From the NCBI RefSeq assembly GCF_003334385.1, contig NZ_QOWN01000170.1: a DNA stretch of 525 bases; one strand, written 5' to 3'. The translations under genes and the position numbers were made by a program. Position 1 is the first letter of the stretch. Each line of letters starts with the position of its first letter. Shown here in pieces: positions 1 to 525 of this stretch. The notes beneath the pieces are model-generated. The model was given only the letters and a program-made list of their open reading frames with translations. It was not told the origin of the DNA and did not search any database. This stretch comes from Escherichia coli (GTDB lineage Bacteria; Pseudomonadota; Gammaproteobacteria; Enterobacterales; Enterobacteriaceae).

Positions 1-525
1 CGGAAGGGGTGATACGGATGCACGACGAGCGGACCCACCACTACGACAGCCAGCACCGCCTGGTGTTCTACACGCGGATACAGCACGGCGAACCACAGGT
101 GGAGAGCCGGTACCTCTATGACCCGCTGGGCCGCCGGACGGGAAAACGGGTATGGCGGCGGGAGCGTGACCTGACGGGGTGGATGTCGCTGTCGCGTAAA
201 CCGGAGGTGACATGGTACGGGTGGGACGGTGACAGGCTGACGACGGTACAGACCGGCACCACGCGTATCCAGACGGTATACCAGCCGGGGAGCTTCACGC
301 CGCTCATCAGAATCGAAACAGAGAATGGCGAACAGGCGAAGGCGCGGCACCGGAGCCTGGCGGAGGTGTTGCAGGAGGACACGGGTGTGACGCTCCCGGC
401 GGAGCTGGCGGTGATGCTGGGGAGGCTGGAGCGGGAACTGCGCGCGGGAGCGGTGAGTGCGGAGAGTGAGGCATGGCTTGCGCAGTGCGGGCTGACGGCG
501 GAACAGATGGCCGCGCAGATGGAGG
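1..525 (+). CDS. Rhs-family YD-repeat protein, internal fragment of the conserved core (partial at both ends; reading frame begins at position 3)
   Basis: Frame +3 is open across the entire window (174 sense codons, no stop). The translation contains YD-repeat motifs ([33 protein letters not shown]) and the stretch [24 protein letters not shown]...[18 protein letters not shown], which I recall as closely matching the E. coli Rhs core; this is memory, not a search. Third codon positions are strongly G/C-biased (about 83% by my manual count, G-ending codons dominant), which supports this frame as coding. Internal ATGs (18-20, 183-185, 414-416, 507-509, 519-521) are not starts because the frame is open upstream to the window edge. 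I cannot tell which paralog (rhsA/B/C/D-like) from this fragment, so no gene symbol is given. Confidence 0.9.
39..71 (+). repeat. Degenerate YD-repeat (Rhs repeat) motif, protein level: [11 protein letters not shown]
   Basis: In-frame peptide [11 protein letters not shown] fits the loose YD-repeat consensus (YD followed a few residues later by R-L-hydrophobic). It is a protein motif, not a nucleotide repeat. Confidence 0.55.
108..140 (+). repeat. YD-repeat (Rhs repeat) motif, protein level: [11 protein letters not shown]
   Basis: In-frame peptide [11 protein letters not shown] is a near-exact match to the Rhs/YD consensus RYxYDxxGRL(T). This is the best-conserved repeat in the window. Confidence 0.75.
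213..245 (+). repeat. Degenerate YD-repeat motif, protein level: [11 protein letters not shown]
   Basis: In-frame peptide [11 protein letters not shown] is a YxYDxxxRLT variant with Y replaced by W; the same aromatic-x-aromatic-D ... RL(T) register as the other two motifs. Confidence 0.6.

Follow-up and report, generated by a model that had tools for sequence, protein, structure and literature searches.

Gene, alleles and locus

The window, meaning the whole 525-nt stretch of DNA that was analysed, comes from within the conserved core of an Escherichia coli Rhs toxin gene of the RhsG type, its identity as an E. coli Rhs core being close to certain. Frame +3 alone was free of stop codons (174 codons). 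The following features were distinguished:

Positions 3 to 524, plus strand: Rhs core gene fragment of the RhsG type, 174 codons open at both ends, corresponding to about residues 965-1141 of a 1499-aa homologue.
Positions 39 to 323, plus strand: portion of the YD-repeat shell, GC 62-67% per 100 nt, with amino acids 13-107 aligning to solved Rhs shells.
Positions 324 to 524, plus strand: Glu/Ala/Leu/Gln-rich insert (amino acids 108-174) ending in ...AAQME, where the GC of the window is highest.
Positions 39 to 44, plus strand: single hexamer CACTAC (His-Tyr), present as two tandem copies in most E. coli alleles.

The identification as Rhs core, proposed in the earlier note, was borne out by a match of the 174-aa fragment to NCBIfam NF041261 (RHS_core; profile positions 968-1148 of 1261, E 3.8e-101, 340 bits). 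The whole-protein cut-off of this profile (2000 bits) is out of reach for a fragment of 174 aa, and was exceeded by a full-length homologue carrying the same segment (2554 bits). Save for one 6-bp indel the window equalled positions 12001-12531 of locus L002, which encodes the 1499-aa homologue, inside an annotated 'RHS element core protein' (9108-13607). Amino acids 13-107 aligned with Tse5 of Pseudomonas aeruginosa (8cp6, residues 900-983, E 5e-7) and with the T6SS Rhs of Salmonella bongori (8qjb-d, including 8qjc and 8qjd; overall E 5e-7 to 6e-4), at the final YD-repeat strands ahead of the C-terminal plug; the similarity to both shells was distant, and amino acids 108-174 had no counterpart there. 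Pfam RHS_repeat (PF05593) gave a weak sub-threshold match at amino acids 35-47 (E 5.2), and the full-length homologue had six significant TIGR01643 (YD repeat) stretches.

The insert at amino acids 108-174 aligned to no PDB or Pfam entry. Its GC reached 72-73% in 100-nt windows spanning nt 351-500, and it was kept in enterobacterial homologues, with a variable GSEDGxG indel in many of them. It corresponds to about residues 1075-1141 of the gene, and G3 in L002 peaked at 0.57-0.62 over residues 1001-1150 (100-codon windows). The insert is probably helical and sits inside the YD-repeat shell region. Rfam gave no match to the window at E ≤ 1, and internal repeats were limited to an 18-nt pair and a 15-nt inverted pair, neither above chance level. 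Two open reading frames on the minus strand (116-382, 88 codons; 307-474, 55 codons) were rich in Pro, Ser, Ala and Arg, and look like the usual by-products of a high GC3 on the coding strand.

The window encodes HHY (RTHHYD) and most E. coli alleles encode HHYHY (RTHHYHYD), an in-frame difference in copy number. The second CACTAC was the only difference over 525 nt in the pairwise alignment with locus L001 (12037-12048). Of 5426 complete E. coli genomes, 3721 had Megablast matches; the positive genomes carried a median of three and up to six copies, almost all of them chromosomal. The best matches, on hundreds of chromosomes, were 100% identical to the window apart from the 6-bp indel, and the exact window was absent from the 5426 genomes. 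The short HHY form over positions 1-90 occurred in 3 of the 5426; three porcine ETEC strains with this form differed from the window at eight other sites. Because the short form is joined here to downstream sequence common elsewhere, the window is, judged by its sequence, a mosaic or recombinant allele of the E. coli lineage, with an ETEC-type HHY and downstream sequence identical to that of many other strains.

In L002, hcp and vgrG were followed by rhs, a 125-codon ORF, ISAs1, yafV, ivy and fadE, and the order tssB-hcp-vgrG-rhs-immunity-ISAs1-yafV-ivy-fadE was found in six strains (L002, L003 and L066-L069). Near-identical homologues lay directly downstream of vgrG and next to yafV-ivy-fadE in these six strains and in Escherichia albertii (L009), and from these copies we infer a T6SS-linked locus for the window itself, which came without flanks. 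In an E. coli T6SS cluster, the rhs gene that follows vgrG has been named rhsG (PMC10711316). Like it, the nearest full-length homologues directly follow hcp-vgrG and precede yafV-ivy-fadE; unlike it, one near-identical copy (L001) is a truncated orphan. The window protein was 81% identical to K-12 RhsD and 73% to RhsA, which places it in a third subfamily; the assignment to the RhsG type rests on these identities together with the locus.

In E. coli strain 300709 (L001, 7693-11304) the T6SS was degraded, with partial tssJ and tagH and an IS1 insertion; the rhs copy best matching the window was a fragment without its N-terminus, and a second, frameshifted rhs lay downstream. The flanking proteins Hcp and Ivy had the same accession in most of the strains fetched. 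Rhs core sequence of the E. coli type (75-98% protein identity to the window) also occurred on short contigs of assemblies labelled 'Collinsella sp.' (MAG, L008), 'Bacillota bacterium' (MAG, L014) and 'Jeotgalibacillus sp.' (L031; a 270-nt contig with coverage 0.77). Its presence in these Gram-positive assemblies is most likely contamination or mis-binning.

Composition of the window and deviation from the host

The window contained 213 G, 135 C, 111 A and 66 T, hence 348/525 (66.3%) G+C, and G made up 40.6% of its bases. Third positions in frame +3 were 58.6% G, 24.1% C, 11.5% A and 5.7% T (GC3 82.8%), with GC1 at 0.68 and GC2 at 0.48. The earlier note had reported 66% G+C (348/525), about 83% GC3 and a dominance of G-ending codons, and all of these counts were reproduced. 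So were CGG in 11 of the 20 Arg codons and ACG as the main Thr codon (11 of 16); GCG accounted for 11 of 13 Ala codons. Four-fold sites had G and C in the ratio 65:14. The excess in GC3 consisted entirely of G, with no rise in C3, and G was preferred whether the G-ending codon was rare (CGG, GGG, ACG) or common (CTG, GCG, CCG).

The host reference consisted of 97 long ORFs (37,797 codons) from three 50-kb stretches of E. coli K-12, from which 287 host windows of 174 codons each were cut. The codon adaptation index (CAI) was referred to 30 highly expressed genes (ribosomal proteins, rpoA, tufA for EF-Tu and fusA for EF-G). Host windows (mean ± SD) and the window compared as follows:

GC: host windows 0.532 ± 0.032 (maximum 0.605); window 0.661; z = +4.0.
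GC3: host windows 0.582 ± 0.061 (maximum 0.764); window 0.828; z = +4.05.
G3: host windows 0.308 ± 0.055 (maximum 0.466); window 0.586; z = +5.1.
C3: host windows 0.273 ± 0.053; window 0.241; z = -0.6.
CAI: host windows 0.48 ± 0.12; window 0.29; z = -1.6.

The window exceeded all 287 host windows in GC, GC3 and G3. The comparison with host averages of GC, GC3 and CAI that the earlier note had proposed, run here on the sampled K-12 ORFs, showed the window to be atypical, and its placing of the composition far above the host held at 4-5 SD for GC, GC3 and G3, with a CAI of 0.29. As stated there, CGG was rare in E. coli: it supplied 8% of the Arg codons of the sampled ORFs and 1% of those in the highly expressed genes. 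ACG made up 25% and 6%, respectively, of the Thr codons. Neighbouring T6SS and housekeeping genes had a GC of 0.50-0.57 and a GC3 of 0.53-0.67, and flanking and sampled E. coli genes were at about 52-53% GC.

A composition native to a host of about 65% GC with matching codon usage was excluded, and its probability is close to nil: the DNA was 98.9-100% identical to E. coli chromosomal copies, whose flanking genes had a GC of 0.50-0.57, and the window stood above every one of the host coding windows. It is scarcely more credible that the high GC is a mere by-product of the composition of a YD-repeat protein rich in Gly, Arg, Ala and Asp. The window protein back-translated with host codon usage did have a GC of 0.579 ± 0.012, about 5 points over the host mean of 0.53, but the maxima among 5000 back-translations (GC 0.619, GC3 0.701) fell short of the observed 0.661 and 0.828, so most of the GC excess is synonymous. 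Amino-acid composition as the only cause was thus ruled out; of the 13 points of excess GC, about 5 came from the amino-acid sequence of this Gly/Arg/Ala/Glu-rich protein and about 8 from synonymous choice of G-ending codons.

Core, tip and the G-over-C skew

In the full-length homologue L002 the core (positions 9108-12869, amino acids 1-1254, ending PLNPVQRGDPLGL) had a GC of 0.634 and a GC3 of 0.75, and the tip (245 aa) a GC of 0.488 and a GC3 of 0.37. Across the junction GC3 in 100-codon windows went from 0.72-0.82 to 0.40 and reached 0.26 at the gene's end; the ORF downstream of rhs had a GC of 0.37, and intergenic DNA 0.28-0.32. The core/tip junction PxxxxDPxGL lay in homologues at amino acids 1245-1254, 338 nt (about 110 codons) beyond the end of the window, and TIGR03696 at amino acids 1177-1254. 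The tips varied between strains. The drop in GC at the core/tip boundary downstream, anticipated in the earlier note, was therefore seen in full-length homologues (GC3 0.75 to 0.37). It was also seen in K-12 RhsA (GC of core 0.616, tip 0.403, yibA 0.337) and RhsD (core 0.633, tip 0.367, ybbC 0.306), and RhsG-type homologue cores had a GC of 0.634-0.637.

Rhs genes have been described as a 'G+C rich conserved core' with an 'A+T rich' core-extension (PMC2935791, Jackson 2009), and the match to the GC-rich Rhs cores asserted in the earlier note agreed with this description and with RhsA and RhsD. The composition of the window is the long-known signature of a GC-rich core and an AT-rich tip, the classic picture of these genes from the Hill laboratory (1990-1998) and Jackson 2009. 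E. coli RhsA-H share a common GC-rich core ORF of about 3.7 kb, an AT-rich variable extension, a small AT-rich immunity ORF and ISAs1 (H-repeat) (PMC2935791); tip GC was 0.37-0.49 in RhsA, RhsD and the RhsG-type homologues. In Serratia marcescens SMA1610 the core is likewise far richer in G+C than the tip (67.7% vs 46.4%), with a low-GC trough running downstream (PMC2935791), although that gene differs from the window in rhs clade (clade II) and in host.

Dominance of G-ending codons, reported for the window in the earlier note, does not extend to Rhs cores in general. Core G3 and C3 were 0.35 and 0.37 in RhsA, 0.42 and 0.34 in RhsD, and 0.45 and 0.30 in the RhsG type, so that the vgrG-linked type to which the window belongs had a stronger G-ending dominance than RhsA. 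Within the RhsG-type core (L002), G3 peaked at 0.57-0.62 at residues of about 1000-1200, including the window, and the skew was a property of the 3' approximately 290 codons. Once amino-acid families and the G/C preference of each host had been allowed for, the excess of G among four-fold sites in loci from many genera was +0.01 at amino acids 1-500 and 0.00 at 501-965, increased to +0.13 at 966-1141 (positive in 28 of 34 loci), and increased further to +0.23 at 1142-1254 (positive in 28 of 30 loci), these loci being phylogenetically non-independent. In E. coli it was +0.30 at 966-1141 and +0.29 at 1142-1254. In most genera the skew was absent from amino acids 1-965. Lelliottia, Buttiauxella and one Phytobacter core had little or no skew over 966-1141, and over 1142-1254 it was lacking too in only one of three Buttiauxella cores.

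In the 3' bins the third-base identity of E. coli to Citrobacter, Phytobacter, Lelliottia, Mixta and Trabulsiella was at the level expected from composition alone, and the 3' skew is therefore not a simple retention of the same ancestral bases. In the GC-rich hosts Pseudomonas, Curvibacter and Parachitinimonas, C3 exceeded G3 both in Rhs cores and in flanks, and no donor with GC3 > 0.8 and G3 far above C3 was found among the sampled hosts.

Several candidate causes of the skew were tried and rejected. A strand bias of replication or transcription was not reflected in neighbours on the same strand, which had at most a slight excess of G3 over C3 (vgrG 0.37/0.30, hcp 0.30/0.30). A strand signature of deamination would run in the opposite direction to the A3 > T3 of the window. 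Chi sites numbered 0 in three rhs genes of 4.2-4.5 kb (about 0.8 expected). Against synonymous-codon shuffles of the window, G-runs and Shine-Dalgarno-like motifs were not enriched; GGAG/GAGG was marginal (P = 0.03, uncorrected for four tests). The choice of G in the window did not depend on the next base.

Elsewhere in L002, the block at about 10450-11200 (Rhs amino acids 450-700) had a lower GC3 (0.61-0.64) than other parts of the core, G3 and C3 being about equal there. This block overlapped the segment most divergent between alleles (62-77% identity).

Age, mosaicism and origin of the composition

The E. albertii locus (vgrG-rhs-ISAs1 remnant-yafV-ivy-fadE-lpcA) was syntenic with that of E. 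coli, and dS between E. coli and E. albertii was 0.33 for the rhs core vs 0.27 for fadE, lpcA and vgrG. Because the locus is syntenic and its dS is like that of its neighbours, a recent import into E. coli was excluded. The order tssE-tssC-tssB-hcp-vgrG-rhs was likewise present in Yokenella. Alleles of the rhs core at one locus (L002, L003, L066-L069 and L009) were block mosaics, in which identity went from 100% to 68-78% between 300-nt blocks, and the E. albertii allele fell within the range of E. coli alleles. As a clean vertical clock, the rhs dS between the two species is weakened by this mosaicism. Across many genera, core GC3 at 26 loci with a near-full core correlated with flank GC3 (r = 0.78) with a mean excess of +0.066 ± 0.063, the host baselines being samples of 1,700-5,100 codons (at least 1,500 was needed for these 26) and not whole genomes. 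In enteric hosts the excess was smallest in Serratia silvae and Trabulsiella (about 0) and largest in E. coli, E. albertii and Lelliottia (+0.15-0.17).

Isolated singletons in eight RhsG-type alleles comprised 25 S→W and 7 W→S changes at third positions (binomial p = 0.002) and 37 and 16 at all positions, a net flux from GC to AT in a small sample of young polymorphisms, with which a weak fixation bias towards GC stays compatible. The flanks, whose GC was 52-53%, gave 49:37 and 61:31 for S→W against W→S. The observed S→W share (0.78) equalled that expected from the per-site bias of the flanks (0.78-0.84), so the core is under the substitution regime of the host and yet out of equilibrium, and its composition looks as if it is currently decaying towards host GC. 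With per-lineage dS assumed at 0.47, on about the E. coli-Salmonella scale, a rough two-state model left a starting GC3 of 0.95 at about 0.72. An old import would therefore suffice.

Import from a GC-rich organism was reportedly argued by Wang et al. in 1998 from substitutions that distinguish the subfamilies. The Rhs core has elsewhere been described as 'introduced from an organism with high GC content' (PMC7259588, quoting Hill 1994). The horizontal acquisition that the earlier note read from the composition retained the atypical composition, the lack of equilibrium and the literature view on its side; a recent arrival did not stand, the locus being syntenic in E. albertii, and the donor was unmatched among the sampled hosts. 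The pure-G excess, the 3' skew across genera and the decay together point to an import that is old and not recent.

The account considered moderately probable is that the composition is a legacy of an old foreign origin, followed by slow decay and by reshuffling of alleles; the old origin and slow decay are what the composition and the substitution pattern suggest. The core, chiefly its 3' part, would have resided for the greater part of its history in a pool of GC- and G-rich sequences, the 3' core being the piece that may be exchanged along with toxin tips; orphan tips bring partial 3' cores with them (PMC2935791). In E. coli the core would be out of mutational equilibrium and would slowly lose GC, and block recombination among alleles and paralogues would reshuffle the GC-rich segments. 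A mobile shared pool of '3' core plus tip' cassettes would account for the signature being specific to the 3' end. Against the legacy account, C3 exceeded G3 in the GC-rich hosts sampled, unlike in the G-dominated window, and a donor-matching taxon was not found among them. A 3'-only skew persisting at chance synonymous identity is moreover not predicted by a uniform donor composition, and could be produced by a standing force. An old import alone does not explain the G-only skew specific to the 3' core.

Two standing forces were weighed against this legacy. One is that GC-biased repair or gene conversion during recombination keeps GC3 high in the multi-copy, constantly recombining Rhs cores, favouring W→S alleles at conversion tracts, with no foreign origin; this is possible but unlikely. 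In its favour are the strong block mosaicism at one locus, with the E. albertii allele in the E. coli range, and the median of three and up to six copies of the window segment per positive genome; a core GC3 that exceeds the host by +0.066 on average and still tracks it fits a general upward push, and GC richness was kept in lineages with saturated synonymous sites. Biased conversion, however, favours G and C alike, which leaves the G3 of 0.59 vs the C3 of 0.24 and the 3' skew unexplained; the young substitutions favoured GC no more than those of the flanks did, and multi-copy Trabulsiella cores were nearly without excess (+0.00 to +0.07). Known effects of gBGC in bacteria amount to a few GC3 points and not to 15-25, which also counts against it. 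Selection on a G-rich non-template strand in the last approximately 290 codons of the core, for R-loop or single-strand formation and hence recombination at the core/tip junction (tip displacement), or for slower translation before the toxin domain emerges, is improbable. It would fit the position-specific skew (about 0 at 1-965, +0.13 at 966-1141 and +0.23 at 1142-1254) and its recurrence in most genera despite third-base identity at chance level. It would also fit the 40.6% G of the window, with two G-cluster runs of the type used to predict R-loop initiation, and the position of the region beside the junction at which tips are exchanged (PMC2935791). Yet G-runs and SD-like motifs at shuffle level and the irrelevance of the next base indicate no organisation at the level of motifs, and the choice of G in rare and common codons alike speaks against codon rarity as the selected trait. 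Also against this putative role of the strand are the weak or absent skew over 966-1141 in Lelliottia, Buttiauxella and one Phytobacter core and the phylogenetic non-independence of the loci.

Beyond the literature examined are the pure-G excess at third positions, the skew specific to the 3' end across genera, and the current decay in E. coli. The 3' skew could be a selected nucleic-acid feature, an R-loop or single strand beside the junction driving the recombination that swaps tips, a reading to which an even slimmer probability is attached than to strand selection at large; if it were true, the G-rich non-template strand of the 3' core would be loosely analogous to immunoglobulin switch regions. 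The main use of the finding is the correct annotation of the window as an RhsG-type Rhs core in an E. coli host.
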